In this document: in pieces, positions 8,679 through 56,734 of the stretch
Layout: each line of letters starts with the position of its first letter
Numbering within the stretch: the first letter of the stretch is position 1
NCBI GenBank assembly: GCA_003560595.1
Contig: PWKY01000066.1
Coordinates: forward strand, 226 to 64,225
Reading direction: 5' to 3'
Source: Thermoplasmata archaeon
GTDB lineage: Archaea > Thermoplasmatota > Thermoplasmata > Halarchaeoplasmatales > Halarchaeoplasmataceae
DNA: 64,000 nucleotides
Program-made: the position numbers and the translations under genes
The notes under the pieces: model-generated
What the model was told of the DNA's origin: nothing
What the model saw: the letters and a program-made list of their open reading frames with translations, nothing else
Database searches by the model: none

Positions 8679-9133
8679 TTATTCTTCTCCTTCAATAGTT
8701 TCTCGAGTTCTTTTTCAAAACACGTTATGTCCGCAAAGCTCCTATACACAGAGGCGAAACGTATGTAAGCGACCTGATCCAGTTCCTTCAGACCTTCCAT
8801 GATCTTTTCTCCTATCTCCTCGGCCTCCACTTCTCTGCACCCACTTTTCCTTATATCCGTCTCTATACGATTGACCATCTCTTCTATCTTGTCCACAGAG
8901 ACCGGTCTTTTCTCACAGGCCTTCTCTATCCCCTTACGGACCTTTTTTCGGTCGTATAGCTCCCGGTGACCGTCCTTCTTGACCACGTATAGCTCCACGG
9001 GCTCGATATACTCGTATGTTGTGAACCGTTCGCCGCAGTTCAAGCACTCTCTCCTACGGCGAATGGTATCACGGGACGAATCACGGGAGTCGGTCACCTT
9101 CGTACCTTCGTTGTCACAGTATGGGCATCTCAT
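8675..9133 (-). CDS. nrdR: Transcriptional repressor NrdR (zinc ribbon + ATP-cone)
   Basis: MRCPYCDNEGTKVTDSRDSSRDTIRRRRECLNCGERFTTYE and AYIRFASVYRSF are near-identical to bacterial NrdR blocks. Start taken at MRCPYC (the ORF track begins 4 codons earlier). Confidence 0.85.
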   Translation of the reverse strand: MRCPYCDNEGTKVTDSRDSSRDTIRRRRECLNCGERFTTYEYIEPVELYVVKKDGHRELYDRKKVRKGIEKACEKRPVSVDKIEEMVNRIETDIRKSGCREVEAEEIGEKIMEGLKELDQVAYIRFASVYRSFADITCFEKELEKLLKEKNK

Positions 9134-9604
9134 CCAAACCACCATATATAGTATATTTAATTCTTATAACTACAATATGGTGTATTTATTTAACCTTTTC
9201 GCAGAATCTAACGATATTATCAGAAGGTTTAACATACATGTTACCTATCATCAATGCATGGACCCTGATATGAGACTTGTAAAATACATAGACAAGGCGA
9301 TCAACAGTGGTGGAAAAAAGATACCCGTACCTGCACGTCTACTCAAGGCAGCTAGTCCTGATGGTAGAGATGCAGCTTCAAAACTGTGTAAATTGAACAA
9401 AGTGGAGATGGTGGTCGTATCTGGATGATATAGAGCTATCTTATTTTCAGAAGATATATTTTATTTCTTAACTCACCAGACTTTATACCTAGCTTTTCGT
9501 TAGGATACACCCTTATCTCTATTCAATAACCCTTCATGATTTGAGATCACCGAATTTGAAGTGCGTTATGCTTAAATACTGTTCCGAACTAGAAACCGTG
9601 TATA

Positions 9605-10876: not shown

Positions 10877-10880
10877 GATC

Positions 10881-13484
10881 CTATTTCATTTTTGATTCTA
10901 TATGATCGATGACCTGGTGTATCTCACACGGTTGCACAACGATCAGATCTCCTTCTTTTGCCATCTCAAATCCGGCTTCTATGGCTTCTATCTCATCGAT
11001 TATCACCGTTACGCGATCTTCCGATAAACCAGCTTCTAAAACACCTTGTTTTACCAACTCCGCAGTTTCTCCGATGTTACGATACCTGGGGTCTGCATCG
11101 TTTATGATCACACGGTCGTATATCTTCCCGATACCCCTTCCAAAGTCGATGATATCTTCCGTCGGGCGGTTCCCAGTTCCCGAACATATAGTTATCTTTT
11201 CATTATCTGTTAGCTCATCCAATATCTTTGATATAGCTTCGACAGCGGGTCTGTTGTGTCCGTAGTCTATCATGACTTTGATCTTACCAACATCCATTAT
11301 GTTCATCCTTCCAGGATTTTGGTTGGTAGATGACTGGAAGGTCAAAAGCCCGCTTTTGATAGATTCGATGTCTATATCAAGGGCAAAGCATGAGGCAACT
11401 GCGGCTAATGAGTTCTGCAAGTTGAAGGCAGCTTTACCCTTAAATGCTATGGGTATATTAGCCACCTCGACCACCTTCCAAACGCTCTCACCTTTCTTTA
11501 TAACTATCCTATCGTCATCGACGGTTACAACTATACCGCCTTCGGAAAGATGTTCTTTTACTTCATTCATATCTGGGTCTAGTGAAAATAGTATGGTGTC
11601 CGCGTGAACGATATCTTTGTATCTGAACACATTGGGGTCCTCAGCATTGAGCACGGCTTTACCTGAAGCTTTAACGGTTTCCACCACGATACCCTTGAGG
11701 CGAGCCATGTCCCTTATGGTATTGATGCGCCCCTCACCCATGTGGTCCTTTGTGACGTTCAGGAACACGCCCACATCGCTCTCGTAATATCCTAACCCCC
11801 TTCTTAATATACCTCCTCGTGCCACCTCTAACACCGCATGATCAACGGTCTTTTCTTTTAGAACAAATTTTGCCCCCTGTGGTCCGCTAAAATCCCCCTC
11901 TTTCAATAGATGATCGCCTCTAAACAAACCGTCAGTACATGCGACGCCTACGTTTTTACCACTCAACATCAAGATATGGGCTATCAATCTGACTGTGGTG
12001 GTTTTTCCGTTGGTCCCTGTCACTGCCACTATCGGCACTCTACTCTTTGCTCCTGGTGGAAAGAGCATATCTAACACATACTTGGCAACGTTCCTCCGCT
12101 TCCCCTCATATGGATCCAAATGCATCCGAAATCCAGGTGCTGCGTTCACCTCTATTACCCCTCCATCACCATGCTTTATCGGTTGTTTCATGTCCTGAAC
12201 GATCAGATCGATACCCATAACATCCAAACCGATTATATCGGCGATCCTTTCAGCTAACACCTTATTATTTGGATGTAACGAATCGGTCACATCGGTAGCG
12301 GTCCCCCCCGAGCTTAGATTTGCGGTTGATTTCAGTAACAACTCTTCTCCTTCGGGAAGAACTGTGTCTAAAGTATGGTTATTCTGTTTGAGGATCCTTT
12401 TTGTCATGTAATCTATTTCGATCTTAGTAAGTGTTTTCTCGTGACCTACCCCTCTTCTTGGGTCGCTGTTCAATACCTCTATCAGTTCTTTTATAGATGA
12501 TCTACCATCACCCCTTATGAATGGAGGATCTCTTCTAGCTGCAGCAACAAGCTCTCCATCTATCACCAGCATCCTGTGATCGGCTCCTTTCAAATATTCT
12601 TCGATGACTACATTGGGATCGATCTTTTTAGCTATCTTAAAAGCGAGTTTTAATTCCTCACTATCCTCCACCCTTGAGGAGATCCCTCGTCCATGGTTAC
12701 CTATATTCGGTTTTACAGCTACTGGATAACCTGATCTCTTTGCCATGCTTAAAGCCTCCTCTATAGTTTTGACCGTCCCCCCTCGGGGAACGGGTATGCC
12801 CGCTTCTTCAAGGATATCTTTCGTATTTTTCTTATCATCGGCGATCTCAACGGCGATGGCGGAAGTGTTCTCGGTCATACTGGCTTGCACCCTCTTTTGA
12901 TAAGAACCATGGCCCAGCTGGACGTAGCTGTGCTGGTTCAGCCTTATATAAGGTATACCCCTGCGGTATGCTTCACTTACTATGGATTTTGTAGTAGGCC
13001 CAAGCATATTCTGGTCCCGAAGGTACTTCAATTTTTTTAATACCTCTTCGATATCCGGTTCCTCCCCCTTCGTCAAGGCTTTAACTACTCTTACTGCTTC
13101 TTTACCTGCTTCGATGCCGGCGTCTTCATCTCTGTACCTGAAAGCTATTTCGTATATCCCATGTTGGTCAGTAGACATAGTTTTTCCGAAACCTACATCC
13201 ATGTTGGCTAGGCACTGCAGTTCTATGGCCACATGTTCAACTATATGTCCTAACCATGTACCCAATTCCACTCGTTCCAAGAAACCTCCTTCGTATCCCC
13301 GGCTACAGCGATGGGCTTTCAATGAGGGTAAGAGTGATTTCAAGCGTTCTACGAAGCCTGGTATCTCATCAGATGGTCTATCTTCGAATTCTTCGATATC
13401 TAAAAGCATGTATACCACCTGATATCGACTAAAGTAATTTGGCCCTCTGAGGGCTCTGATCTCTTGGATCTCTATGATTATCAC
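10881..13484 (-). CDS. cphA: Cyanophycin synthetase (ATP-grasp + Mur-ligase domains)
   Basis: 867 aa. N-terminal IQEIRALRGPNYFS and FLERVELGTWLGHIVEHVAIELQ, an ATP-grasp core, then the Mur-ligase P-loop AVTGTNGKTTTVRLIAHIL. Collinear with bacterial CphA. Confidence 0.85.
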   Translation of the reverse strand: MIIIEIQEIRALRGPNYFSRYQVVYMLLDIEEFEDRPSDEIPGFVERLKSLLPSLKAHRCSRGYEGGFLERVELGTWLGHIVEHVAIELQCLANMDVGFGKTMSTDQHGIYEIAFRYRDEDAGIEAGKEAVRVVKALTKGEEPDIEEVLKKLKYLRDQNMLGPTTKSIVSEAYRRGIPYIRLNQHSYVQLGHGSYQKRVQASMTENTSAIAVEIADDKKNTKDILEEAGIPVPRGGTVKTIEEALSMAKRSGYPVAVKPNIGNHGRGISSRVEDSEELKLAFKIAKKIDPNVVIEEYLKGADHRMLVIDGELVAAARRDPPFIRGDGRSSIKELIEVLNSDPRRGVGHEKTLTKIEIDYMTKRILKQNNHTLDTVLPEGEELLLKSTANLSSGGTATDVTDSLHPNNKVLAERIADIIGLDVMGIDLIVQDMKQPIKHGDGGVIEVNAAPGFRMHLDPYEGKRRNVAKYVLDMLFPPGAKSRVPIVAVTGTNGKTTTVRLIAHILMLSGKNVGVACTDGLFRGDHLLKEGDFSGPQGAKFVLKEKTVDHAVLEVARGGILRRGLGYYESDVGVFLNVTKDHMGEGRINTIRDMARLKGIVVETVKASGKAVLNAEDPNVFRYKDIVHADTILFSLDPDMNEVKEHLSEGGIVVTVDDDRIVIKKGESVWKVVEVANIPIAFKGKAAFNLQNSLAAVASCFALDIDIESIKSGLLTFQSSTNQNPGRMNIMDVGKIKVMIDYGHNRPAVEAISKILDELTDNEKITICSGTGNRPTEDIIDFGRGIGKIYDRVIINDADPRYRNIGETAELVKQGVLEAGLSEDRVTVIIDEIEAIEAGFEMAKEGDLIVVQPCEIHQVIDHIESKMK

Positions 13485-19986: not shown

Positions 19987-20766
19987 ATGAAATCTATGTT
20001 TGGAGAATCGAGTGAAAGTGACGTTACAAGAGCTATAGTGCGAGAATTCGGGAAGGTATTGGACGAGTATTCCGAATCCGATGTGATAATAGTGGGTGCG
20101 GGGCCGAGCGGACTGATGGCCGCCCGGGATCTGGCTTCCAAAGGTCATAAAACACTGGTGGTCGAGAGGAACAATTATCTGGGTGGTGGCTTCTGGTTGG
20201 GAGGTTATCTTATGAACACGGTTACAGTGCGCCCCCCTGCTCATAAGATCCTCGACGAGCTCGGTATACCGTACAAGAAGAGTGGCAATCTATACACTGC
20301 GTTGGGTCCTCACGCGTGCTCTAAGTTGATCGCTGCGGCCTGCGACGAGGGGATACAGATACTTAACATGACCGAGTTCGACGATGTGGTATTCAGAGGT
20401 AAGAAAAAGGTAGGCGGGGTGGTGATTAACTGGACACCCGTATCCGCATTACCACGGCAGATAACCTGTGTCGACCCTATATCGTTGGAGTCCAAGATGA
20501 TAATCGATTCCACCGGACACGATGCATGTGTGGTTAAGAAACTAGAGGAAAGGGGTCTGCTGGAAACTTCGGGTTTCGGTGGCATGTGGGTACAAGAGTC
20601 CGAAGATCTTGTGGTGGAGCACACCGGTAAGGTCATGGACGGTCTAGTGGTTACCGGGATGGCGGTTTCCACGACCTATGGTTTACCCCGTATGGGACCC
20701 ACCTTCGGTTCGATGCTCGTGTCCGGGAGGAAAGCCGCCGAGGTGGTAGATGAGCTTCTCAGTTGA
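19987..20766 (+). CDS. thi4: Thiamine thiazole synthase Thi4 (archaeal type)
   Basis: FAD-binding [11 protein letters not shown] motif and the [11 protein letters not shown] block; collinear with Thi4/THI1. Confidence 0.85.
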
Positions 20767-21511
20767 ATTACCATTTGATAGAACGATATTGTACCTCCCA
20801 GCTGATCTTGAACATCTAGACGGCGACGAGATGCTGGAATTCACCGAAGAGTACACCGGTTTACCGGTAGAATTACGGGATGATTTCTTCCATGAATATT
20901 ACCGTGAGGACCTACCTAGAAGATCGGCTCAGACCAGGGTCAGGGATCTTACCGAAAGGAGGTTCATCGAACCCCTTCCGGTGGAGGTCGATCTTGAAGA
21001 GAAGATAATACATGGAAGGAACGTCCGGGGTATTATCTACGACGGGCGGAGGTTAACAAAGATGATACGGGAGTATATAGCTCCGGCGAAGGGCCATCAT
21101 GTGGTCATCACCGATAGAGCGGTGGGTACTATGGAGGAGCACGATGCCCGCTATCATATTCGAACGCTTATCTGTTCGATCCCTTCTCTTATCTCCACTT
21201 CCGGTATCGTAGAAGGTCCGGCGAAACCGAGGGAGTATTACACCGGCTTGAAGTCGGATCTCGGATTCGAGCCCATGAAGTACGGAGACACTCGTATGAC
21301 GGATGCGGTGAAGTCATACATCCTTCAATCTCTCGCATGGAGGATCACCGGGGAGCCCTTTTGTGAGGATAAAGGGTGCCGTCTTTACAATTCTCACTGG
21401 CAGAAAGAAGTGGTCGAGTATCAGCTGAAAGGTGAGCTGTGTGACGAAGACATGAAATTATTTCGAGAGTTCCAAAATTTTATGTATTCAAAGGATGATG
21501 CGAGGATATGA
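20750..21511 (+). CDS. Conserved hypothetical protein between thi4 and the ThiF-like E1
   Basis: 253-aa ORF whose boundaries overlap thi4 and the downstream E1 gene (ATGA coupling); Cys-containing C-terminal region. Confidence 0.4.
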
Positions 21512-22497
21512 CAAGGTATTCTCGCCAAACCGTGCTGCCCGAGATCGGGGACGAAGGCCAGAAACGTTTGAGCGAGAGCCGGGTAGCTATAATAGGACTA
21601 GGCGGGCTGGGTTCGGTGATGGCGGAAGGGTTGGCGAGAGCCGGTGTGGGTTATCTTAGAGTGGTGGACAGGGATGTGCTGGAATTATCCAACCTTCAGC
21701 GCCAGGCACTTTATGGCGAAGGAGATATCGGGAAAGCCAAAGCCGAGTTGGTAAAAGAGAAGATAGGCCGGATCAACTCCGAGGTTAGTGTTGGATCTCA
21801 CGTGGTCGAGGTAGGTTCGAAAAATATTGAAAAACTCATAGATGGTGCAGATATAGTATTAGATGCCACGGACAACATGAAAACCCGTTTCATACTCAAC
21901 GATGCCTGTGTGAAACACGGGATACCTTGGATTTATACTTCTATCTTAGGCACCTACGGTATGACCATGGATGTTGTACCCGGAAAAGGCCCCTGCTTAC
22001 GCTGCTTGCTCGTGAAGATGCCGGAACCCGGGAGTATGGAGACCTGTGCCACCGCCGGTGTGCTTTTTTCTTTACCACGGATCATGGCGAACATAGCCGC
22101 CACCGAGGCAGTGAAATATTTAATCGGGGCGGATACGAGAAATACTTTACTGACGATAGATATTTGGAAGAACGATTACGAACAGATCCAAGTGACTCAA
22201 AGAGAAGACTGTGGATGCTGCGCTAAAAAGGATTTCGAATATCTGCAAAAAGAAGACGATCTCACCACTTCCATGTGCGGTAGAGAAGCGGTACAGGTGA
22301 CACCCGAGGAGAGAGTTGAGGTCGATCTAGACAAGTTCGTTAAAAAGTACGGCGGAAAGATGGTAGGGAGATCATTGGCAAAGTTTGAAATGGATGCTTA
22401 CACACTCACACTCTTCAAAGACGGAAGGCTTATCGTCGAGGGGACTGAAGATCCTAAAAAGGCGATAAGTATTTACTCGGAGTACATAGGTAGATGA
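21508..22497 (+). CDS. ThiF/MoeB/HesA-family E1-like adenylyltransferase with an additional C-terminal domain of about 80 aa
   Basis: YSRQ start, nucleotide-binding IIGLGGLGS motif and two CxxC pairs (CLRCLL, CGCCAKK). Confidence 0.8.
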   Translation: MTRYSRQTVLPEIGDEGQKRLSESRVAIIGLGGLGSVMAEGLARAGVGYLRVVDRDVLELSNLQRQALYGEGDIGKAKAELVKEKIGRINSEVSVGSHVVEVGSKNIEKLIDGADIVLDATDNMKTRFILNDACVKHGIPWIYTSILGTYGMTMDVVPGKGPCLRCLLVKMPEPGSMETCATAGVLFSLPRIMANIAATEAVKYLIGADTRNTLLTIDIWKNDYEQIQVTQREDCGCCAKKDFEYLQKEDDLTTSMCGREAVQVTPEERVEVDLDKFVKKYGGKMVGRSLAKFEMDAYTLTLFKDGRLIVEGTEDPKKAISIYSEYIGR

Positions 22498-22501
22498 TAA
22501 G

Positions 22502-23680
22502 ATGGACGTAGAAGATATCAGAAAGGACTTTCCTTTAGTCGATGAATACATATACTTTGATAACGCCTGTTTGACCCTTAAACCGTATCAGGTGATCGAT
22601 GCGGTGGATGAATATTATCATAAGTTTCCCGTCTGCGCCGGACGCAGTTCTCACAGTTTATCCAACCTACTCACCCGTAAGATAATATCCGCTCGTGACT
22701 CGATACGATCGTTTATAAATGCAGACGATCCGTCTGAGATAGTATTCACCAAAAATACTACAGAGTCCATCAACCTGGTCGCACGTGGTATGGGTTTTGA
22801 AAAAGGAGACGCGGTGCTTTCAACGGATAAAGAACACAACAGCAACCTGGCACCGTGGCTTTTGCTCAAGAAAGATAAGGGTATAGAATACGATCAGGTC
22901 CCTTCACTACCGGACGGCACCTTCGATCTAGAGAAGTTCGAGGAGATGATGGATAACGACGTCAAGATGGTCTCCATGGTACACACATCTAATCTGGATG
23001 GTGTGACCATACCTTCAAAAGAGATAGGTAAGATAGCTCACGATCACGACGCTTACTTTATGCTGGATGCCGCCCAAAGCGTACCCCATAGATCTATAGA
23101 CGTGAAGGAGCTGAACGTTGATTTTTTGGCTTTCTCGATCCACAAGATGCTGGGTCCCACCGGTGTCGGCGTACTCTACGGTCGTAGAGAGTTGATGGAT
23201 GAGTTGGACCCCTTGGTGGTCGGTGGAGGCAGTGTAAAGGACACATCATACGAAGAAGTAACTCTACACTCGTCGCCCAATAAGTTCGAAGGCGGACTAC
23301 AGAATTACGCGGGCCTTTGCGGTGTGAAGGCTGCTGTGGATTATTTGCTCGACATCGGTTTGGATAAGATAGAGAAACACGAGATCGAGCTCAACAAACG
23401 TGCCACCGACGCTTTGAAGGATAGAGTCACCATACTCGGTCCCGAGGATCCCGAGTCGAGATCAGGTATATTTAACTTCAACCTAAATGAACTGGGCTGC
23501 CACGAAACCGCCTTACTACTGGAGGAAAGTAAGATACTCACCAGGGGTGGTATGCAGTGTGTACATTCATGGTACAATAAACGAGGTTTGGAAGGGGGAA
23601 CAAGGATTTCTTTTTACCTTTATAACACTGTAGAAGAAGTGGATATACTGGTCGAGACCATGGAGAGCCTGCTGGGTTAG
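22502..23680 (+). CDS. Cysteine desulfurase (class V aminotransferase, SufS/CsdA-like)
   Basis: PLP-lysine context FSIHKMLGPTGVGVLYG and an N-terminal block typical of NifS/SufS. Confidence 0.8.
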   Translation: MDVEDIRKDFPLVDEYIYFDNACLTLKPYQVIDAVDEYYHKFPVCAGRSSHSLSNLLTRKIISARDSIRSFINADDPSEIVFTKNTTESINLVARGMGFEKGDAVLSTDKEHNSNLAPWLLLKKDKGIEYDQVPSLPDGTFDLEKFEEMMDNDVKMVSMVHTSNLDGVTIPSKEIGKIAHDHDAYFMLDAAQSVPHRSIDVKELNVDFLAFSIHKMLGPTGVGVLYGRRELMDELDPLVVGGGSVKDTSYEEVTLHSSPNKFEGGLQNYAGLCGVKAAVDYLLDIGLDKIEKHEIELNKRATDALKDRVTILGPEDPESRSGIFNFNLNELGCHETALLLEESKILTRGGMQCVHSWYNKRGLEGGTRISFYLYNTVEEVDILVETMESLLG

Positions 23681-23961
23681 TCCTCTTTGTTCTCTTCCAT
23701 CACCGGAGCTAATTCCTCGAATAATCTATCGACGATCTCCTTGTCGGTGGTTTTGAACAGCAGCTTTCCCGAAGGGTAGAATCCTACTTCTACATCTTGA
23801 TCTGGATGTAAAGCAACGATGATGACTTCCGAGGTGAACTTCATCTTGTAACCTTTGTTTTCCAACCGATCCTGCACTCCCTCCATGTTGATCTTCGTCT
23901 TCTTTTCAGGCTCGGCAACGTATGCTCCGGAATCCGAACAGGGTTCTACCACATGATACAT
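23677..23961 (-). CDS. Small hypothetical protein
   Basis: 94-aa ORF coupled to the upstream ThiI-like gene; no motif recognised. Confidence 0.3.
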   Translation of the reverse strand: MYHVVEPCSDSGAYVAEPEKKTKINMEGVQDRLENKGYKMKFTSEVIIVALHPDQDVEVGFYPSGKLLFKTTDKEIVDRLFEELAPVMEENKED

Positions 23962-23964
23962 TTT

Positions 23965-24591
23965 TCAACCACCTTTTTTCTCGAATAACAATCCTTCGAT
24001 GAGATCTTCTACATCTAGATATACTTCCTGCTTTTTAACCTCTTTCACCGTACTGCTTACACGGGGTCCGTCGGGAGTCAGCATGCAGCACACCGCCGGC
24101 TGTGTGGATATATCAAAGGTCCCGATCTTTTTTGCGATCTGGATCACCTCTTCTTTATCCAGTCCTATCAACGGCCGGTGTATCGTGATATCTACTGCGT
24201 CGTCTTCTGAAGCGAGATTAGAAAGCGTCTGTGAAGCCACCTGTCCCAGTGACTCACCGGTAGCTATCGCATCCGCACCTATTTGTTTTGCTAGTCTTTC
24301 AGCTCCCCGGTACATCATCCTGCGGCATAAGATGCACTGGAAGTGGCTGCTTGCGTTCTTAGCGATTGATTTTTCGACCTCTGAAAAGTCACAGGTATAA
24401 AAGTCGATATCGTCATGTATTTTCTGCAGCCTTTCAGCCAAACTGTGAACGGCTGCCACCGTGTTGTCATCGGTGAACGGACGGGTATCCATGTATAGTA
24501 AGCTGACCTCGAAACCCGCCTCCGCTAAAAGGTGTGCCGCTACGGGGGAGTCGATACCTGCCGACAGTAATAAAACTACCTTCTGGACCAT
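23965..24591 (-). CDS. ThiI-like PP-loop ATP pyrophosphatase (tRNA 4-thiouridine synthase catalytic domain only, no THUMP domain)
   Basis: PP-loop LLSAGIDSPVAAHLL; 208 aa. Confidence 0.7.
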   Translation of the reverse strand: MVQKVVLLLSAGIDSPVAAHLLAEAGFEVSLLYMDTRPFTDDNTVAAVHSLAERLQKIHDDIDFYTCDFSEVEKSIAKNASSHFQCILCRRMMYRGAERLAKQIGADAIATGESLGQVASQTLSNLASEDDAVDITIHRPLIGLDKEEVIQIAKKIGTFDISTQPAVCCMLTPDGPRVSSTVKEVKKQEVYLDVEDLIEGLLFEKKGG

Positions 24592-43856: not shown

Positions 43857-44153
43857 CTATAAAAAATTATCCGTTAGACCCCTTTTCAATAAGCTCTGAT
43901 GAGTCATCATCTTCACGTTTTCTCCCCCTTCGACACCTAGCCTTTTCATGTCACCTTCTCTCAGTTTTATATATCCGTTCTCGATCAGAGGATCTGAAAA
44001 AATATTCACCAGGATGTCCCTTCTCTCAGAGCGTATCACAGCGAGATCTCGATCATCTAAACCTAGTTCTCTCATGATCTTTGTATTAACCCTAGCCGTT
44101 CCTTGTATTTTTACTAGACTAGGTTCAACTATCAGGTCTACACTCTTAGGCAT
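43857..44153 (-). CDS. Stand-alone Cdc48/VAT N-terminal-like double-psi beta-barrel domain protein
   Basis: G.ARV..KIMRELGL..D.AVI....R..LV (psi-loop pattern matching VAT-N), 98 aa. Confidence 0.5.
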   Translation of the reverse strand: MPKSVDLIVEPSLVKIQGTARVNTKIMRELGLDDRDLAVIRSERRDILVNIFSDPLIENGYIKLREGDMKRLGVEGGENVKMMTHQSLLKRGLTDNFL

Positions 44154-44868: not shown

Positions 44869-45004
44869 TAAAAGCGGTGAAAGGGCCGATAGATAAAAGT
44901 TTTACTAACAAAAACTCCCGTAAACTATAAATCTTCTATACATTATGAGCTAGAGCCCACTCGAAGAGTTTATTTGGGTTAACATAGATGACCATTTGCA
45001 AACG

Positions 45005-45020
45005 CCTATTTATTGTGGGG
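45005..45020 (+). promoter_or_regulatory. Candidate archaeal TATA box (TTTATTTATT) about 25 bp upstream of the giant repeat-protein gene
   Basis: AT-rich box upstream of the TTG start at 45030. Confidence 0.3.
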
Positions 45021-45029
45021 ATGTAGAAA

Positions 45030-48000
45030 TTGTCAGGTAAATACCTCAAAGCGAGGCAACTCGCAAAAGAGATGGAAAAGCTCGCAAAAAAGACTGCCGA
45101 GGATAAGAAGGAAGCCTTAGATAATCTAGAGAAGGCCGAAGAACTACTAGATGATTCAAAGGAGCTGGGGGCAGATGTTGAGGGGGCTGAAGAACTCATA
45201 GATGAAGCCCGGGAACACTTCGAAGAAAAGGAATTAGAAAAGACGATCGAAAAGGTAGAAAAAGGGTTGGAAATAATTCGTGAAGCCAATAGTAAGAGGG
45301 TCACCGATCTGATGAAAGGTACCGAAGAACTTCATGAAATGATCGCAGAGGAAGATAGATACAAAGAGTCTCTAGAACTCCTTGATCAGGCTAAGGAGGC
45401 GATGGAGGATGATGATTTTAAAGGTGCCATGGAAAAGGCAAAAGAATCTTTGGACCTAGCTCTGCTCGAGATACAAGAAAAACTGACTGATGAATTCGCC
45501 ACCTTGGATTCAATGGTCATCTCTCTTGAAGATAAAGGGGAAGATCCAGAAGAGATCGAAACCAAGGTGCAGGAAGCTAGAGATGCCATGGAACAAGATG
45601 ATTTCCAGACCGCCGTATCACTGGTTAATGAATGCAAAGAATTACTGCATAAGGACTTGAAGGCATTGGTCGAGGAAGAGATAAATAAAGTGAAGAAGCA
45701 GGAGGAGATGATAAGAGAGGGTGGAGGAACAACTGTAGATATCGAAGAGATGATAAGCAAAGCTAGAAACCGTATCAAGGATGGTCACTTTGAAAGTGCC
45801 GTAGAATTCGTCGATGACGCAAAAAATGAATTGAACGAGGCCATGGAAGCTGTAGTTGAAAAGGTGGAAGGCGATATCGAAGGATCACTCAATGAAGCTA
45901 AAGAGATCGAATGTGACATAAGCAAGATAGACGAGATGAGAGAAAGGCTCGTCGACTTAAAATATGAAGGTAAATACAGCGAAGCTTATGAACATATCCA
46001 GAAAATAATTGACAAGCTCGAGGAATTAAAATTCCAAAGAGTGTTAAAGACCATCGCGGAGTCCAGAGACCATTTTATCAAGGGCAAAGAGATAGGGATA
46101 GACATATCTGAACCCATGGGTCTTTTGAATAAGGCGAGGACCTCTCTAAAGGAAGGGGATCATAAAGGAGCATTGGATTGGGCAAATGCCGGGAGACAGA
46201 AGGTAAGGGAGCTTGTGGAGGAACACGAACGCATCGAGATGCGTATAGCCGAAGCCAAGAGAGTAAAGCAGGACCTTGTTGATATAGGCATAGAGCTAAC
46301 CGAAGCAACCAGTATAATATCAGCATCTGAGGAGGCCCTAGGAAAAAAGGATTACGGCGCAGCCGAAGAAAAGCTGGAAGAATTCGACGGATATATCGAT
46401 AAAAATGCCTATGAAGAGATAATGAAACTGGTAGAAGATCTAGAGGTCAAATTAAATATCGCAGAAGATATGGATCTAGATGTTGCTGAGTACACTGAAA
46501 GTTTGGAAGTGGCCATCGCAAATACTAAATCAGCCGAGTATGCAAAGGCTGGTAAGATAACCTTAGATACTTTAGAAGAACTGAATGATCTGATAGAAGA
46601 AGCACTGGATAAACGTATAAAAAACATGAGAGAACTCGTACAAAAGACACAGCAAGAGATGACTGAGGAAGAGGACCTGGAAGAGTTGGAGAAAGTAGAG
46701 GGATTAGTAGAGGAAGTAGAGAGTGCGTTCGATGAAAGCGATTATCGCAAAGCTCACGATTGTTTAAAGAACGTATCTTCCGAGATCAAAAGATGGAGGG
46801 TTGGAGAGGCGGAAGAAAGATATACACGTGTCAAGGAACTGGTCGGTTTGGTCAAAGAACTCGAGATTGAAAATATAGATGAGGATGCGTATGAAGAAAG
46901 GCTTGAGAAAGTCACTGAGGCATTCGACGATGACGATTATACCAACGTTGTAAAGCTCTCCGATGAGATGCTTGATAGTCTTAATAAAGAGTTCGAAAGC
47001 ACTGCTGAGGAAGTATTCTCCCGGGCCAAGATGGAGGCCGTTAAAGCAAAGAAGGCCGGGGTCGATATCGAAGATCTAAGAAGCAGACTGATCGACTGTA
47101 AGAAACTCATACGAAATCAGGACTTTACCTTAGCGATAAGGAATTCCTTGAAGGTCGAAGAGGACGCTAAAAGGATGACGAAAAAAAGAAAATCCAGTTA
47201 CGATCTTATATCCTCTTTATCTACAACTTTAACCAAGCTCAGAAAGAAGGGAGAGATCGAAGATATAACTCCTGCTAAGGAATTATTACTTAAAGCAAAG
47301 ACCAGTTTCCAGGATAAAGATTATACTCAAGCTGAAAATTTGGCACTACAGGCTAAAGAAAAGATAGGCGAACTCACAGCAAAGAGCGAATTCGAATCGA
47401 AACTCAGGAAGCTTCGGGAAAACCTAGAGGAAGCCAATGCTCTTGGTATCGACACTACAGATATAGAACTTGATCTAGATGAAGTAACCTCAATTATGAA
47501 AGAAGGAGATATCGAAGAAGCTGTGGAGGGTATAAGAGAGGCTCAGGAGAATATAAAGGAAAAGATGAGTGATTTTGTAAAACCTGAGATCGAACGCACC
47601 CGTGACATAATCAACTCTGCTAACAACATCGGTGTTGACGTATCTACTCCTGAAGCCATACTTGAAGAGGTCGAGAGTTTATGGGAAGCTGGTGACTTCT
47701 CAAAAGCTTTGACCGAGATAGAAGAATGTAAACGAGAGATCGAGGGCATCAAGAACAAAAGCAAACGTGCAGCAAGTGGTGTAAAACGTGTAAAAGATAG
47801 GATATCAAAGGCCAAGGATCTTAATGCGGATGTTAAAGAACCGGAAAAATACATGAATCAAGCTATAAAAGCACTGAAGGAAGACAGGTATGAAGATTCA
47901 ATCAAATTCACAAAAAAGGCAGAGGAGAGTGTTGAAGAGGCTGAGATGGTTAGGGTTTACAGCATACTGGAAACCTTCAATAAGAAAATAGCAGAAGTAA

Positions 48001-49394
48001 GAAAGGAAGGAGTGAACACCGCCTTCGCAGATAACCTGATGAAGCGTGCTGAAAAAGCCATGGATGCAGGTAAATACCACGAAGCGATCAACTTGGCTAT
48101 GCAGAGTGAAGGGGAGGTAGAGAGGATAGAACTGCAGAAGGATATCGCAAAAAGGAGTATCTCTACAACTCAAAAGAAGATCGAGGATGCCAAGGAAGAA
48201 GGCATAAAGGTAGGCGACGCAAAAAAACTATTAGACCAGGCAAAACAAGCATACAAAGGTGGCTTTTACGTAAAGGCATTCGATAACGCAGTTAAAAGCG
48301 GAGACGACGTCAACCATGTACTCAAAGCACATCAGGAGGTATCAGAAAGATTAGAGTCACTGCCCAAACTGATAGATGCCATGGATGGGCTTGAAGTAGG
48401 GGAAAAAGAATTACAAAAACGATTTGAAGACATCAAACGTTCTATGAGTAGAGGAAGGTACACCAAGGCTTTAGAAACCATCAAAGAAAACGAGAAAAGT
48501 TTGGAAGAAGTCAAAGAGCGTTTACATGATAAAATAGATGAAATCGAAAAAACTGTAAATAATTATCAGGATCAGGGAAAAGAAGTGGGGTCCGCATCTG
48601 AGTTACTTCAAAACGCAAAAGGGAACGTAGATATGGGTGAGTTGATCGAAGCGTGTAACCAGATACAAAGTGCTAAAAAGGAGTTCGGAGGAGATGCTGT
48701 AGAAGGGTATCAAAAATATATCGGCGAGGCTAAAGAATTGATACAGATGGCTAAGAAGTTCGGAGCATCCATCACAGATGCTCAAGGGCTGATCAAGGAG
48801 GCCACTTCTTTGGAAGGGGAAGATATATCTGGTGCTAGAGATAAGGCCCACGAAGCACTAGAGTGCATAGAAAAGTCTTTAGAACCCTACAGTCCCAATA
48901 TATCCTTATCTTCAAAAGCCAAGCTTCAGAAGGGAGATTGGAATACTATCAAAGTCGAATTTAAAAATACTGGTAGAGGGGTCGCGAAAAGTCCCGAGCT
49001 ATCCGTGTCAGGCGGCGAATTGAAAAAAGTTGATCTACCAGCCATGCTCAAGGCCGATGAGGAATTGGAATTAGAAATTAAGTTGAAACCCATCGATGAA
49101 GTAGTTACTCTTACCGCTTTGGGAACTCGAATATTCGACCAAAAAGAACTGACCGATGAAGAAGAGATCGAAGTTGTTGAAAAGTTGTACGGATTTGTAG
49201 AGGCGGAGGGAGGAGAGCACTGCAATATATGCGGTGGTACGATAAAAGAAGGGTTAGAGATAATCCGATGTAGTTGTGGAGAAACCATTCATAAACCGTG
49301 TGGGGAAAGGGAAGGTAAATGCCCGAACTGCGGGGTAGAATTGAAGGAAAAGAAAAAGAAGAAGGCATCTAAACGGGTGGCTTTGAAGATATGA
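45030..49394 (+). CDS. Giant (1454 aa) acidic helical-repeat protein: about 18 tandem TPR/MIT-like helical-hairpin units separated by coiled coil, with a C-terminal C4HC3 RING/PHD-like zinc finger and a poly-Lys tail
   Basis: Recurrent [LI]G[IVA]D[IV]s..e.ll..A.......GD[FY]..A......A unit about every 35-40 residues. C-terminus HCNICGGTIKEGLEIIRCSCGETIHKPCGEREGKCPNCG. TTG start in the track; first in-frame ATG at 45072. Confidence 0.6.
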   Translation: MSGKYLKARQLAKEMEKLAKKTAEDKKEALDNLEKAEELLDDSKELGADVEGAEELIDEAREHFEEKELEKTIEKVEKGLEIIREANSKRVTDLMKGTEELHEMIAEEDRYKESLELLDQAKEAMEDDDFKGAMEKAKESLDLALLEIQEKLTDEFATLDSMVISLEDKGEDPEEIETKVQEARDAMEQDDFQTAVSLVNECKELLHKDLKALVEEEINKVKKQEEMIREGGGTTVDIEEMISKARNRIKDGHFESAVEFVDDAKNELNEAMEAVVEKVEGDIEGSLNEAKEIECDISKIDEMRERLVDLKYEGKYSEAYEHIQKIIDKLEELKFQRVLKTIAESRDHFIKGKEIGIDISEPMGLLNKARTSLKEGDHKGALDWANAGRQKVRELVEEHERIEMRIAEAKRVKQDLVDIGIELTEATSIISASEEALGKKDYGAAEEKLEEFDGYIDKNAYEEIMKLVEDLEVKLNIAEDMDLDVAEYTESLEVAIANTKSAEYAKAGKITLDTLEELNDLIEEALDKRIKNMRELVQKTQQEMTEEEDLEELEKVEGLVEEVESAFDESDYRKAHDCLKNVSSEIKRWRVGEAEERYTRVKELVGLVKELEIENIDEDAYEERLEKVTEAFDDDDYTNVVKLSDEMLDSLNKEFESTAEEVFSRAKMEAVKAKKAGVDIEDLRSRLIDCKKLIRNQDFTLAIRNSLKVEEDAKRMTKKRKSSYDLISSLSTTLTKLRKKGEIEDITPAKELLLKAKTSFQDKDYTQAENLALQAKEKIGELTAKSEFESKLRKLRENLEEANALGIDTTDIELDLDEVTSIMKEGDIEEAVEGIREAQENIKEKMSDFVKPEIERTRDIINSANNIGVDVSTPEAILEEVESLWEAGDFSKALTEIEECKREIEGIKNKSKRAASGVKRVKDRISKAKDLNADVKEPEKYMNQAIKALKEDRYEDSIKFTKKAEESVEEAEMVRVYSILETFNKKIAEVRKEGVNTAFADNLMKRAEKAMDAGKYHEAINLAMQSEGEVERIELQKDIAKRSISTTQKKIEDAKEEGIKVGDAKKLLDQAKQAYKGGFYVKAFDNAVKSGDDVNHVLKAHQEVSERLESLPKLIDAMDGLEVGEKELQKRFEDIKRSMSRGRYTKALETIKENEKSLEEVKERLHDKIDEIEKTVNNYQDQGKEVGSASELLQNAKGNVDMGELIEACNQIQSAKKEFGGDAVEGYQKYIGEAKELIQMAKKFGASITDAQGLIKEATSLEGEDISGARDKAHEALECIEKSLEPYSPNISLSSKAKLQKGDWNTIKVEFKNTGRGVAKSPELSVSGGELKKVDLPAMLKADEELELEIKLKPIDEVVTLTALGTRIFDQKELTDEEEIEVVEKLYGFVEAEGGEHCNICGGTIKEGLEIIRCSCGETIHKPCGEREGKCPNCGVELKEKKKKKASKRVALKI

Positions 49395-52455: not shown

Positions 52456-52911
52456 TTGATGAAGCAGTGTCCCTCATGTTCCCGGATGGTCGAAGAGTTT
52501 TCTGATCGATGTCCAACCTGTGGTATGGTCATGATGCCTTCTAAAGAACCAAGCAAGTATCCTGAGGTAGCCGGTGTTTTGATGGTGGTGGCAGCTTTGA
52601 TCGCTATCTTATTTGCCATCTCTGCGATCATGGGTTTAGGTGAGGTGGTCGAACAGGTTCAGCCCGAGCTGCCCGAAGAATTGGATACGGATTTTTTTGA
52701 AACGATACTCAACGCCTGCTTTGTTCTTATCTCCGTATTTGGTGTAGTCCTTTTAGTTGGAGGTTTTCTAGCCTATAATCGAAAGAGCTGGCTAATGGTC
52801 ATGGTATGCGCGATAATAGGAATATTTTCCATAGGTTTTTTCTTGATCTCATCTGTTTTATCTATAGTAGCTCTGATATTAATCGTTATGAGTAAGGATG
52901 AATTTCAATGA
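52456..52911 (+). CDS. Membrane protein with N-terminal CPxC-x12-CPxCG zinc ribbon (first of three consecutive zinc-ribbon paralogs)
   Basis: CPSCSRMVEEFSDRCPTCG followed by three hydrophobic helices. Confidence 0.55.
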   Translation: MMKQCPSCSRMVEEFSDRCPTCGMVMMPSKEPSKYPEVAGVLMVVAALIAILFAISAIMGLGEVVEQVQPELPEELDTDFFETILNACFVLISVFGVVLLVGGFLAYNRKSWLMVMVCAIIGIFSIGFFLISSVLSIVALILIVMSKDEFQ

Positions 52912-52972: not shown

Positions 52973-53830
52973 TTGGTAGAACAAGGTGAAATAAAATGTC
53001 CAGTATGCGACTCTTTGTTAGATAAAGACAGCAGGAATTGTCCTTCATGTGGGTTGACTCGCAGCCTTATCGACATGGAAAAAAATATGGATGAGGACCC
53101 AGTTCTAGATCTTATGGGAGATATAATCGATGATATAACCGATGATAGATTAAAGGAGAGTGAAGATGAGATCTTTAATATTGTGAAGAAATTGAACAAC
53201 TCTAAAGAATTAAATGGTGATGAGACCGTAGAAGTGACTGGTGATGAGACCGTAGAAGTGACTGGTGATGAGACCGTAGAATTGACCGGTGATGAGACCG
53301 TAGAAGTGACTGGTGATGAGACCGTAGAATTGACCGGTGATGAGACCGTAGAAGAAGTGGTGATCTTTGAGTGCCCAATTTGTTCTGCAGAGGTGGAGGA
53401 AACCGATTCTGAATGTCCAGGGTGTGGGGCTATATTTGAAGACGATGAAGAAGACATCGAGGAGTTATTGGATGAAGAGTTATCTAACGCAAGGAACGGT
53501 CTGGTAGAGATCAGGGATCTACCGATTTCTCCGGATGCTTTGAAGGACTTGGTAAAGCAGTCGGTGACGATGAAAAAGGAAGGGGACCTAGAAAGAGCCT
53601 TAGAGAAGGCTGTTGAAGCGAACGACTTACGCCATAAGTTAGAAGAATTCGTTAACATACTTTCAGATTCCAAAAAGATGCTGAAAAAGATGAAAGAGAA
53701 TGGAATGGATTATATGGGTCACATGAAAGATTTAAAGGACTCAAAAAATATGGTAGAACTCGGAGACGTACATGGTGGACTGGAATCTTCACGGCAAACA
53801 TATACCGAAATATTAAAAAAAATTGGTTGA
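52973..53830 (+). CDS. Zinc-ribbon / acidic-repeat / coiled-coil protein (paralog of the next gene)
   Basis: CPVCDSLLDKDSRNCPSCG, then 6x GDETVEVT repeats, a second ribbon CPICSAEVEETDSECPGCG, then one helical repeat unit and a coiled coil. TTG start. Confidence 0.6.
   Translation: MVEQGEIKCPVCDSLLDKDSRNCPSCGLTRSLIDMEKNMDEDPVLDLMGDIIDDITDDRLKESEDEIFNIVKKLNNSKELNGDETVEVTGDETVEVTGDETVELTGDETVEVTGDETVELTGDETVEEVVIFECPICSAEVEETDSECPGCGAIFEDDEEDIEELLDEELSNARNGLVEIRDLPISPDALKDLVKQSVTMKKEGDLERALEKAVEANDLRHKLEEFVNILSDSKKMLKKMKENGMDYMGHMKDLKDSKNMVELGDVHGGLESSRQTYTEILKKIG
53215..53360 (+). repeat. 24-bp tandem repeat x6 (GGTGATGAGACCGTAGAAGTGACT), coding for GDETVE[VL]T
   Basis: Read directly; the variants differ only by gtg/ttg. 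Confidence 0.9.
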
Positions 53831-54130: not shown

Positions 54131-56734
54131 GTGCAGAAACTGAGCGAAAACAAGGGTATCATCTGCCCAGTATGCAAAACCGAGATACCGGATGAGTTGG
54201 AGGAGTGCCCTAGCTGTGGCCTTGATAAGATACTCATCGAGCTTGAAGAGGGAGAGGATAACGATGAATACGTCGAGAACTTAGAGAAACTATTAGCCGA
54301 CGAACTAGACGACGATCTTTTGGATCTGGAGGATGATCTAGATGAGTTAGACTTGGACGATCTAGATGATGAATCACTGGACGATATATTGGGATTAGAA
54401 GAGTCAGACGATATATCGGAATTAGAAGAGTCAGACGATATATCGGAATTAGAAGAGTCAGACGATATATCGGGATTAGAGGAGTCAGACGATATATCGG
54501 AATTAGAAGAGTCAGACGATATATCGGGATTAGAAGAGTCAGACGATATATCGGAATTAGAAGAGTCAGACGATATATCGGAATTAGAAGAGTCAGACGA
54601 TATATCGGAATTAGAAGAGTCAGACGATATATCGGAATTAGAGGAGTCAGCTGATATATCGGAATTAGAAGAGTCAGTTGATATATCGGAATTAGAAGAG
54701 TCAGCTGATATATCGGGATTAGAAGAGTCAGACGATATATCGGAATTAGAGGAGGAGGTAGAGCAAGACGATCTTCTGTTGGGATTAGAGGATGAGGTGG
54801 AAGATATATCCGAAGAAGAGCTTCTGAAGGAGCTAGAGGAAGAACTTGAGGTATCGGATGAAGTGGTGTACGAATGTCCAACATGCGGTCACCATTTAAA
54901 GGAAGAGGACAAAAAGTGTTCTTCCTGCGGAACGGTTTTTGAAGACTCAGAAGAAGAACTTGAAGATGAGCTCAGTCTGTTAGAACAAACCCTTGAGGAT
55001 CTAGCTGAAGATGAGTTGGAACCGACCTCGGAAGATGAGCAGGAAGTTATAGAGATAATGGAGGAGATCCAACGATTCATAAAAGATCTGGAAGAAGAAC
55101 CGATAAAATTAGATGTGGTACGCCAGCTTTATGAACAAGTTGAAGGGGAAAAAGCGAAGGGCAACATCGAATCAGCCTCACGTCTCGGATTGGAAGCCTT
55201 AAAAGTATGCGAGAACATGGAGCGCTTTTTGGATAGGAGCCGAACACTGAAAAAAGAGCTTACCTTTTTCAAAAAAGTAGGTCTGAACTACGATCATTAT
55301 GTAAGTGAACTGAACTCCGCTAGAAGGTCTGTCGAATCAGGTCTTACCAAGAAGGGATTGGAACGGGTAGATAAGTTGATCGAGAAAGCGGAGTCAAAGA
55401 AAAACAACTATGAGAAATTACACGATACCAAGCAAAACATCAACGATGTGGTATCTAACCTAAATCAGATATTGAGCTCCGCTAAATCTTTGAAGATGCC
55501 TTTGGAATCAGAAAGGGAGTTGATTTCAAATGCTCTAGTGGCCTCCAAAGACGGTGATGTACAAAAGGCCTTAGATTGGCTATTAAAAGCTAGAGAACGC
55601 TCTATAGATAAGATAGAGGATACCATATCTCAGAATATACGGGATTTTGAAGAGAAGGTCCACGAGTTGAGAGCAGATAATAGAGATAAATTAGAAGATA
55701 TGTTGATGAAAGTTAGAGATGCTAAGGTCGAAGGGAACTATATCCGAGCGGGTAAACTTATAGGCCGAGTGAATAAGTTGGTTGAAGGGACATTAAAGGA
55801 AGATAACGGGGAACTAGACGCTTTAAAAGACTTGATCGATGCTGCGGTATCCATCGGCGTAGATACAACCGCGTGCATTGAACACTATCAAAAGGCGATC
55901 GATTCCATGGACCCTAGAAGAAGAAAGATACACATCAACAACGCCAAGAGACATCTCACGAAACGGTTACCACCTAAATTACAGTCAGCCATGAAAGAAT
56001 CCTTGATAAAGCTAGAGAAGGCGCGAGAAAATGAAAAAAACATCTCCAAGCCGGTGACCTATTTAAAACAGGCCAACCTGAACGTCAAGAAAAAAAATTA
56101 CCTTAAAGCCTTGGAGTACATCAAGGTATTCAACGATAAAATACGGCCGATGCTGGAAGAAGAGGAAGAAAAAGAAGAGGTAAAGGAAGCCGGCGTATTA
56201 CGCATACAAAAGAAATTGAAGAAAGAACCAAAACCCACTAAAACCATCGATCTAAAAAAGACCAAAACCATCCCGAGGGATCTGATGAAAGGTTCAACAT
56301 ACCTTTTTACCGAAACAGACCCAGTTGAAGCCTTTAAGATGGCCAAAAAAAAGGTCGATGAAGGTATAAGAGGTATCTGCGTTACCAGACAGTACCCTGA
56401 TAAGGTGAAATCAAGATATAATATGAGGGATGTCAGAATAATATGGTTATCGAATATAGACCAAGCCGATGCGATCAAACCTAAGGCATTGGATGATCTG
56501 AGCTTGGAGATGGAGGATTTCCTAAAAGATGAAGGTGGATTGATACTGCTTGATGGGTTGGAATATTTGATATCAAATAACGACTTCAAAATTGTATTCC
56601 ATGTTATACAATCTATCAAAGACCAAGTTGCCATCTCCGATTCCATACTTATACTTACATTAACGCCGGATACACTGGAAAAACACCAGATAAGCCTTTT
56701 GGAAAAAGAAGTCGATGAAACCTATCATCTTTAA
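54131..56734 (+). CDS. Zinc-ribbon / LEESDDISE-repeat / coiled-coil protein with a C-terminal DUF835-like domain (867 aa)
   Basis: ICPVCKTEIPDELEECPSCG, 13x 9-aa acidic repeats, a second ribbon ECPTCGHHLKEEDKKCSSCG, helical repeats of the giant-protein type, and a C-terminal GSTYLFTE..GICVTRQYP..IIWLSN..LLDGLEYLISNNDF..ILILTLTPDTL block. GTG start. Confidence 0.6.
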   Translation: MQKLSENKGIICPVCKTEIPDELEECPSCGLDKILIELEEGEDNDEYVENLEKLLADELDDDLLDLEDDLDELDLDDLDDESLDDILGLEESDDISELEESDDISELEESDDISGLEESDDISELEESDDISGLEESDDISELEESDDISELEESDDISELEESDDISELEESADISELEESVDISELEESADISGLEESDDISELEEEVEQDDLLLGLEDEVEDISEEELLKELEEELEVSDEVVYECPTCGHHLKEEDKKCSSCGTVFEDSEEELEDELSLLEQTLEDLAEDELEPTSEDEQEVIEIMEEIQRFIKDLEEEPIKLDVVRQLYEQVEGEKAKGNIESASRLGLEALKVCENMERFLDRSRTLKKELTFFKKVGLNYDHYVSELNSARRSVESGLTKKGLERVDKLIEKAESKKNNYEKLHDTKQNINDVVSNLNQILSSAKSLKMPLESERELISNALVASKDGDVQKALDWLLKARERSIDKIEDTISQNIRDFEEKVHELRADNRDKLEDMLMKVRDAKVEGNYIRAGKLIGRVNKLVEGTLKEDNGELDALKDLIDAAVSIGVDTTACIEHYQKAIDSMDPRRRKIHINNAKRHLTKRLPPKLQSAMKESLIKLEKARENEKNISKPVTYLKQANLNVKKKNYLKALEYIKVFNDKIRPMLEEEEEKEEVKEAGVLRIQKKLKKEPKPTKTIDLKKTKTIPRDLMKGSTYLFTETDPVEAFKMAKKKVDEGIRGICVTRQYPDKVKSRYNMRDVRIIWLSNIDQADAIKPKALDDLSLEMEDFLKDEGGLILLDGLEYLISNNDFKIVFHVIQSIKDQVAISDSILILTLTPDTLEKHQISLLEKEVDETYHL
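54392..54750 (+). repeat. 27-bp tandem repeat x13 (ATTAGAAGAGTCAGACGATATATCGGA with minor variants), coding for LEESDDIS[EG]
   Basis: Read directly; the variants are gac to gct/gtt and gaa to gga. Confidence 0.9.

Follow-up and report, generated by a model that had tools for sequence, protein, structure and literature searches.

The 64-kb stretch of DNA analysed here, hereafter the window, comes from a Thermoplasmata archaeon (contig PWKY01000066.1, positions 226 to 64,225) and encodes a giant protein of 1454 residues, made up largely of helical repeats, that ends in a compact C4HC3 zinc finger. The neighbouring gene, which is divergently transcribed, encodes a ubiquitin-conjugating enzyme (E2) with a ubiquitin-like (Ubl) domain fused to its N-terminus. 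Judged by profile comparison, the finger can be assigned to the RING superfamily, where it is closest to the Prok-RING_1 family and not specifically a RING-CH or PHD finger. We give about an even chance to the reading that it is a two-zinc, cross-brace RING that docks the ubiquitin-conjugating (UBC) core of the Ubl-E2 fusion, in which case the giant protein would be a scaffold RING ubiquitin ligase (E3) or an E2-recruiting adaptor.

A compact C4HC3 finger at the C-terminus of a giant protein

An earlier, sequence-only reading of the window had proposed the ligand pattern C-x2-C-x12-C-x-C-x4-H-x2-C-x6-C-x2-C at nucleotides 49221-49331, corresponding to residues 1398-1434 of the giant protein. 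Direct reading, translation and a regular expression search all reproduced this pattern, with exactly the spacing and the coordinates claimed: the first Cys codon begins at 49221, the last one closes at 49331, and nucleotides 49218-49334 translate to HCNICGGTIKEGLEIIRCSCGETIHKPCGEREGKCPNCG in the frame of the giant open reading frame (ORF; 45030..49394, + strand). The 37-residue finger holds 7 of the 14 Cys residues of the whole 1454-residue protein. Using both a strict and a general RING/PHD pattern, we found no other match in any of the six translated frames of the window; across 200 shuffles of the window, the strict pattern gave 0 matches per shuffle and the general one 0.005. Two details of the earlier description needed correction. 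The residues after the finger, given as KEKKKKKASKR, are in fact VELKEKKKKKASKRVALKI, with which the protein ends, 'VEL' having been left out. Calling the loops unusually short was an overstatement as well, since the loops of classical RINGs range over x9-39 and x4-48, and both x12 and x6 fall inside these ranges. The window finger shows the eight-ligand order and the spacing that are required of the RING superfamily.

Family assignment and conservation of the finger

When the isolated finger was scanned against Pfam, the best family was Prok-RING_1 (PF14446; E = 5e-6), with 26.8 bits against a gathering score of 29.1; inside the 176-residue C-terminal module, the same family scored 25.3 bits. 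Weaker matches were to zf-C3H2C3, zf-RING_2 and zf-RING_5. Homologues with the same type of finger lie above the Prok-RING_1 cut-off (P0020 with 50.9, P0110 with 34.6, P0142 with 34.0 and P0028 with 33.1 bits), and zf-RING_2 reaches 32-35 bits in relatives, above its curated cut-off. These relatives were collected in an exhaustive HMMER search with the last 176 residues as query against 1.84 billion cluster representatives (50% identity), which yielded 240 proteins at E≤1e-3, including 52 at E≤1e-10. The spacing was highly uniform: in the best 150 of the 240 proteins, 140 of 146 finger instances had the identical 12/4/6 arrangement. Conservation of the ligands in homologues, which had been suggested as a check on the motif, was complete when 29 C-terminal modules sharing 25-51% identity with that of the window were aligned, all eight ligands being invariant in 29 of 29; the only other invariant columns were two residues of the preceding domain. 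Prok-RING_1 matched 27 of these 29 modules at E≤0.01 (best 2.9e-9) and was the top family for all 27, and zf-RING_2 matched 18. Comparison of the family profile with solved structures likewise returned RING-H2 E3 ligases as the best matches (RNF165/Arkadia, 4.8e-6), followed by RNF126, RNF24, RLIM, RING2, AMFR and XIAP.

The sequence-only reading had matched the ligand order of the finger to that of the RING-CH/PHD family. The RING part of this comparison was upheld, by Prok-RING_1 as the best family, by the retained ligands and by the structural superposition described below, and the more specific RING-CH or PHD part was not. Of the 17 Pfam families that the isolated finger matched at E≤10, none is RINGv (PF12906). 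The PHD profile (PF00628) did not match the window copy, scored 23.0 bits in the best relative against a gathering score of 24, and matched only 1 of the 29 modules at E≤0.01. What PHD and RING-CH fingers have in common with the window finger is the C4HC3 order and a C-x(1-4)-C-x4-H-x2-C middle; in both of those families, the second loop is usually much longer than it is here.

Two further observations concern the distribution of the finger. Among representatives of close relatives (P0009, P0011, P0014, P0019 and P0035), the His ligand is replaced by E, Q or D, as exemplified by CSCGKTYERSC, or the finger is gone; P0035 stops after the beta-sandwich domain, keeping the basic tail and lacking the finger. 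The compact finger is also found, repeated 2-4 times in tandem, at the C-terminal ends of large proteins from Thermoplasmatota (P0016, P0022, P0025, P0110), which carry PKD, NosD/beta-helix, FG-GAP, LamG and DUF2341 domains and, as surface-type proteins, resemble receptor-like proteins with RING tails. It occurs together with an FHA domain as well. Because it recurs on varied surface-type proteins and on an FHA protein, the compact finger appears from its domain contexts to be a mobile intracellular module in Thermoplasmata.

Predicted fold and zinc-ligand pairing

An AlphaFold2 model of the last 176 residues had a predicted local distance difference test (pLDDT) score of 69.7 overall and of 74-88 across the finger, and the score was 81.4 when only the finger was modelled (58 residues, 21-row alignment). 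In the finger-only model, a knuckle is followed by a beta-hairpin and then by a short helix starting at the His ligand, and this order of elements is that of a treble clef. Between 47 and 50 of its 58 residues could be fitted to cross-brace RINGs, at 1.4-1.8 Å, and a Foldseek search with it returned RING E3 domains for all of the top 50 matches (TM 0.5-0.7). The structural comparison that had been suggested with the original motif hence favours a cross-brace RING E3 domain and not tandem zinc ribbons, and the superposition did not yield the sequential ligand pairing (1-4, 5-8) that had been named as refuting that assignment. The predicted fold is that of a cross-brace, binuclear treble clef. 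Based on the superposition and on treble-clef logic, site 1 would be formed by C1398, C1401, H1421 and C1424, and site 2 by C1414, C1416, C1431 and C1434, with the finger binding two zinc ions. A fold search with the whole 176-residue model found only generic beta-sandwiches at E ~1e-3 (adaptin appendage, DsbD-N, NBR1) and was uninformative on the finger.

A divergent Ubl-E2 fusion gene next to the giant gene

The E2 gene that the sequence-only reading had seen next to the giant gene is real, and lies upstream of it in divergent orientation (Table 1). In a comparison with the PDB, its profile matched UBE2L6, UBE2N and UBE2C at ~1e-11, and the protein has the HPN motif, the YPY loop-4 motif and a conserved Cys. 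This Cys is located one residue downstream of the canonical column, which is occupied by H or S instead, in all four orthologues. When the window and loci L005-L007 were searched with a hidden Markov model of ubiquitin (Ub-HMM), built from five archaeal operon ubiquitins, the E2 proteins gave the only matches (E 5.5e-6 to 2.5e-3), each of them confined to the N-terminal ~80 residues. These ~80 residues align with the free Gly-Gly ubiquitins of Methanomassiliicoccales and Micrarchaeota operons, and the position of the Gly-Gly reads PN, DK, SR or LR in the four Ubl-E2 orthologues. The fusion looks like a read-through of a Ub-E2 gene pair with subsequent loss of the conjugation site; we favour a read-through origin because the Ub gene abuts or overlaps the E2 start in the Methanomassiliicoccales clusters described below.

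The nearest relatives of the E2 in species-representative genomes were found in three Thermoplasmata metagenome-assembled genomes (MAGs). In the window and in three soda-lake-type MAGs (L005, L006, L007), the gene order is the same, comprising the giant gene, the divergent E2 gene, an ORF of 98 residues, TrkA and TrkH. An identical E2 protein is encoded on soda-lake sediment contigs (JGI 3300000563, SRR490128). On its other side, the giant ORF is followed by QueH.

Scanning the species-representative genomes with the E2 alignment returned three kinds of archaeal locus, one of them being the soda-lake-type Thermoplasmata arrangement just described. Methanomassiliicoccales MAGs carry compact clusters of an E1-like gene (E1, ubiquitin-activating enzyme), Ub with Gly-Gly, E2 and JAB (L008 3366-4246, L009 9420-11130, L010 8985-10976, L011 ~8904-11244). 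The clusters of Micrarchaeota (L012, L014) comprise E1, a RING protein of 277 residues, JAB, Ub ending in Gly-Gly, and E2. The RING of the latter reads C-x2-C-x17-C-x-C-x4-H-x2-C-x12-C-x2-C, and in a profile comparison it aligned to the window family with a probability of 90% (E 1.6e-6) and with all eight ligands in register, the difference from the window finger consisting of insertions in two loops. The window, too, has an E2 beside a RING protein, as in an archaeal operon-type ubiquitin system, with the Cys of the E2 one column off.

E2-contact residues and comparison with known RINGs

The window finger has I1400 (C1+2) and P1432 (C7+1), and across the family these positions are I/V in 81% and P in 82%. 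At C8+1, the usual position of the linchpin Arg/Lys, there is a Gly, as in 59% of the family, and the segment between ligands 6 and 7 comprises six residues and no Trp. The most conserved non-ligand residues of the motif, G6, K9, G20 and R30 (89-93%), have no classical counterpart; R30, the Arg of the motif, is conserved at 93% and is not at the linchpin column.

Prok-RING_1 reportedly corresponds to the prokaryotic RING fingers of Burroughs, Iyer and Aravind (2011). Its members resemble the window finger in being binuclear treble-clef prokaryotic fingers, some of them encoded next to E2 genes. The window branch differs by its rigid 12/4/6 spacing with C-x-C-x4-H, as opposed to C-x2-C-x3-HH in a planctomycete example, by its own G6, K9, G20 and R30, and by its expansion in Thermoplasmata giants and surface-type proteins. 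In Singulisphaera acidiphila (L043 8306-9250), a classical Prok-RING_1-type finger, CKVCGEAIEGPRVFCAICRTPHHRDCWEYVGTCSIYGC, is located just upstream of an E2-like match, and a similar case is present in L067; both illustrate the known bacterial association of RING and E2.

Among the closest known systems is the small RING finger protein (srfp) of Caldiarchaeum subterraneum, which is required for E1/E2-dependent ubiquitylation in vitro and needs the Ile after its first Cys (I30), a Trp (W58) and the linchpin Arg (R69); in its sequence, the register of C3 and H4 is shifted by two residues, and there is an extra Cys (PMC5654768). Like the window finger, srfp is an archaeal RING encoded beside an E2, its register shift resembles the C-x-C of the window finger, its I30 has a counterpart in I1400, and the Micrarchaeota homologue of the srfp-type operon aligns with the window finger. 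In contrast, srfp is a small protein of its own, encoded in an operon that also contains Ub-GG, E1, E2 and Rpn11/JAB (Caldiarchaeum/Asgard type), whereas the window finger ends a 1454-residue repeat protein and has neither the Trp nor a C8+1 linchpin, nor neighbouring genes for Ub-GG, E1 or JAB. Eukaryotic RING-H2 E3s (RNF165/Ark2C, Arkadia, ZNRF1, RNF38, RNF12) are C3H2C3 where the window finger is C4HC3. Compared with them, ligands 3 and 4 of the window finger form a C-x-C that is two residues earlier, its central helix has x6 as opposed to ~x10, and the Trp and the C8+1 linchpin are missing.

Does the finger recruit an E2?

We propose that the finger is a Prok-RING_1-like, cross-brace member of the RING superfamily holding two zinc ions. 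The ~20 helical repeats, with the CARDB-like beta-sandwich after them, would make up a rod- or solenoid-like scaffold that carries the finger at its end. In the soda-lake lineage of Thermoplasmata, the finger would dock the UBC core of the divergently encoded Ubl-E2 fusion, and the giant protein would be a scaffold-type RING E3 or, at the minimum, an adaptor that recruits the E2, in either case delivering it to partners held along the repeats. E2 binding and ligase activity of the finger are what we infer from this combination, and a ubiquitin-ligase role for the giant protein is plausible. The suggestion that the finger is the candidate E3 for the adjoining E2 goes back to the sequence-only reading and can be retained in part: it agrees with the adjacency kept in the window and three further genomes and with the homology of the finger to the RING of the Micrarchaeota Ub operon, and it is at odds with the missing linchpin and Trp, with the Gly-Gly-less Ubl-E2, with the lack of further components of a ubiquitin system in the 64-kb window and with the distant loci of the giant-protein family described below, where no E2 lies within ~6-10 kb.

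Several observations speak against a RING that docks the neighbouring E2. On the side of the finger, the window copy remains below the Pfam gathering score whether scanned alone or within its module, the His ligand is swapped in close relatives and the whole finger is lost in one of them, the modelled zinc-ligand pairing rests on superposition and not on coordinates, and the linchpin and the helix Trp are gone and the helix is shortened. On the side of the E2, the Cys is shifted, and the fused Ubl has no Gly-Gly in any of the four orthologues. Furthermore, the Ub-HMM found no free Ubl with Gly-Gly in the 64-kb window or in loci L005-L007, and no JAB/MPN deubiquitinase is present in the window, L005, L006 or L007. 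The window has no dedicated E1 either; its sole E1-like gene is a ThiF-family gene (21508-22497), 23 kb off, which probably encodes a sulfur-transfer or SAMP-type activator. Conversely, the Methanomassiliicoccales clusters have no such RING-like finger within 10 kb. Finally, we inspected loci from a metagenome scan that was seeded on one distant branch of the giant-protein family (alignment A3) and in which the visible DNA reached ~6 kb past the start of the gene and up to 10 kb past its end. By HMM, an ORF with a UBC fold was present at 0 of 80 such loci from high-GC soil and groundwater archaea, within ~6-10 kb of the giant gene.

The main rival explanation is a different use of the same fold. 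The finger might have no ligase role and serve, in the manner of PHD, C1 and FYVE fingers, to bind proteins or ligands in general, being read by some partner that is common in these archaea, with the giant being a structural protein such as a chromosome or division rod and the adjacency to E2 being lineage-specific or secondary. Tandem copies of the compact finger on the tails of surface-type proteins, and its occurrence with FHA, fit such a general binding module. However, by sequence profile the finger falls among RING E3 domains and away from PHD and C1, a complete Ub operon encodes a RING homologous to it, and the divergent E2 is kept in the window and three related genomes. The soil loci also carry less weight than their number suggests. 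In every one of them with enough upstream DNA, the giant gene directly follows SMC, ScpA and ScpB on the same strand (for example L075 771-10510, L131, L134 and most of L074-L153), and downstream of it are a convergent gene of ~500 residues and SAM synthetase. Because these loci are syntenic on both flanks, the linkage to SMC amounts to one lineage observation and not many, and with only ~6 kb and up to 10 kb of flanking DNA an E2 could be encoded elsewhere in those genomes. Taken together, we regard a RING fold devoted to binding alone as a serious, if somewhat doubtful, alternative to E2 docking.

A more far-reaching reading can also be formulated. Throughout Thermoplasmata, a rod of ~1500 residues with ~20 repeats might function in chromosome organisation or cell division, its RING recruiting an E2 with a non-conjugatable Ubl, either as an SMC-associated RING (compare Nse1 of SMC5/6) or as a ubiquitin-derived E2-E3 pair turned into a non-covalent assembly module that works without E1 and free ubiquitin. 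We consider this unlikely. It is distinctly improbable that the finger binds nucleic acids as a zinc module and thereby anchors the giant protein on DNA or the chromosome, as PARP fingers bind one zinc and have no profile similarity to the window finger, all sequence-profile matches are to binuclear fingers of the RING, PHD or C1 type, and the basic tail is absent from most family members. Zinc ribbons or knuckles arranged one after the other (ligands 1-4, then ligands 5-8) without RING topology, for which the short loops and several weak zinc-ribbon Pfam matches over the second half of the finger (E 0.007-5) could be cited, are very hard to reconcile with the close superposition on cross-brace RINGs, the treble-clef order of the modelled secondary structure and the alignment of all eight ligands by RING profiles.

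Architecture and conservation of the giant protein

The features of the locus are compiled in Table 1.

Table 1. Features of the giant gene and its surroundings in the 64-kb window
Feature	Position	Strand	Basis and remarks
Predicted C4HC3 RING-family (Prok-RING_1-like) binuclear zinc finger	49221..49331	+	aa 1398-1434; pattern, profiles, conservation, AlphaFold2 model
Giant gene, 1454 aa, TTG start	45030..49394	+	ORF and translation; full-length orthologue of Thermoplasmata proteins of ~1450-1530 aa
~20 tandem alpha-helical repeats, 62-66 aa each (aa 1-1282)	45030..48875	+	jackhmmer self-search
Predicted CARDB/Ig-like beta-sandwich, ~aa 1291-1391	48900..49202	+	AlphaFold2 model with ~8 strands, pLDDT 72-79
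Basic C-terminal tail KEKKKKKASKRVALKI	49344..49391	+	identical in L007
Ubl-E2 fusion gene, 228 aa	44182..44868	-	UQ_con E 7.6e-12; Ub-HMM; alignment
Divergent intergenic region between E2 and giant genes, 161 bp	44869..45029	.	arrangement kept in L005, L006, L007
Putative stand-alone double-psi beta-barrel (CDC48_N-like), 98-aa ORF immediately after E2	43857..44153	-	weak matches

The N-terminus of the giant protein, (M/L)SGKYLKARQL, is kept from the first codon in L005, L006 and L007. The L007 orthologue also has 1454 residues and is 64% identical, collinear and gap-free; in its finger, CSVCGGSIKEGLEIIRCSCGDTIHKPCGEKEGTCPNC, seven residues are changed, none of them a ligand. Beyond these loci, P0007 is 44% identical to the giant protein from end to end, and full-length relatives generally show 35-45% identity over their whole length, with 1451-1467 residues in the nearest branch and ~1495-1530 residues in the soil branch. 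This near-constant number of repeats suggests that length matters. In the databases, the relatives are named only as hypothetical proteins of Thermoplasmata or Candidatus Thermoplasmatota.

The jackhmmer self-search of the giant protein recovered 23 stretches, 17 of them at E<1e-10. The repeats are rich in E and K, and each unit has a 'GDY..A' helix and a 'G.D' turn. Comparing the repeat profile with the PDB gave only a short TPR/PPR-like match to one helix and no convincing known repeat family. A plain coiled coil or a relative of Rad50/SMC could be rejected, as the Rad50 NCBIfam model scored 17.8 bits against a cut-off of 700 and the region is built of ~64-residue repeats. For the beta-sandwich that follows, CARDB matched 10 of 29 family members (best E 1.3e-7), and Foldseek returned generic beta-sandwiches at E ~1e-3. 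The basic tail conforms to a consensus in which a run of K/R leads into [VL]x[LF]x[IVLF](G), with which the protein terminates (KK.SKRVALKI in the window). It is present in 27 of 69 C-terminal modules, in some of them after a long Pro/Ala/Thr linker, and this recurring pattern is suggestive of a docking peptide.

Other genes in the window

The 98-residue ORF downstream of the E2 gene is kept in four genomes at 49-60% identity (the window, L001 2221-2529, L006 2107-2403, L007 10707-11003), and had weak matches to CDC48_N (E 2.9e-4) and to a designed double-psi beta-barrel (E 0.016). As a candidate for a ubiquitin-like modifier it was rejected, having no Ub-HMM match, no Gly-Gly and weak double-psi beta-barrel similarity. 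The ThiF-family gene belongs to a cluster (19987-24591) that also encodes a DUF6775 putative metallopeptidase, a class-V aminotransferase (cysteine desulfurase-like) and ThiI.

Elsewhere, the window encodes the archaeal markers eIF2-alpha and ribosomal protein L44e. The protein of 867 residues encoded at 10881-13484 (- strand) combines a cyanophycin synthase N-terminal domain (1.1e-44) with ATP-grasp and Mur ligase domains, making this a predicted cyanophycin-synthetase-like gene in a Thermoplasmata genome. Three consecutive genes on the + strand (52456-52911, 52973-53830 and 54131-56734) each begin with a CPxC-x(11-15)-CPxCG zinc ribbon. The third, of 867 residues, has a second ribbon and a C-terminal DUF835 domain, and the first two are also present in L007 in the same relative order.

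Discussion

RING E3 ligases and their E2 partners are a hallmark of eukaryotes, and the few archaeal examples of RING/E2 pairs, from Aigarchaeota, Asgard archaea and some DPANN, inform the origin of ubiquitin signalling. That prokaryotes have RING fingers, that these are associated with E2 genes and that archaea possess a working E1/E2/RING cascade is already known. In the searchable literature, we found no description of the giant-protein family, of the compact 12/4/6 branch or its expansion in Thermoplasmata, of such a finger ending a conserved repeat protein of ~1500 residues, or of its pairing with a Gly-Gly-less Ubl-E2 without neighbouring E1, Ub and deubiquitinase genes.

The locus adds a euryarchaeal lineage, Thermoplasmata, whose RING is part of a very large repeat scaffold and whose E2 has taken in the ubiquitin gene, with loss of the Gly-Gly, and it may represent a derived or decaying form of the archaeal ubiquitin system. 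It also exposes a large, unnamed Thermoplasmata family of compact RING-like fingers, with 240 cluster representatives at 50% identity. If these fingers bind E2s, the E3 repertoire of Thermoplasmata would be wider than recognised; if they do not, they would provide a clear prokaryotic case of the RING fold being used for another purpose.

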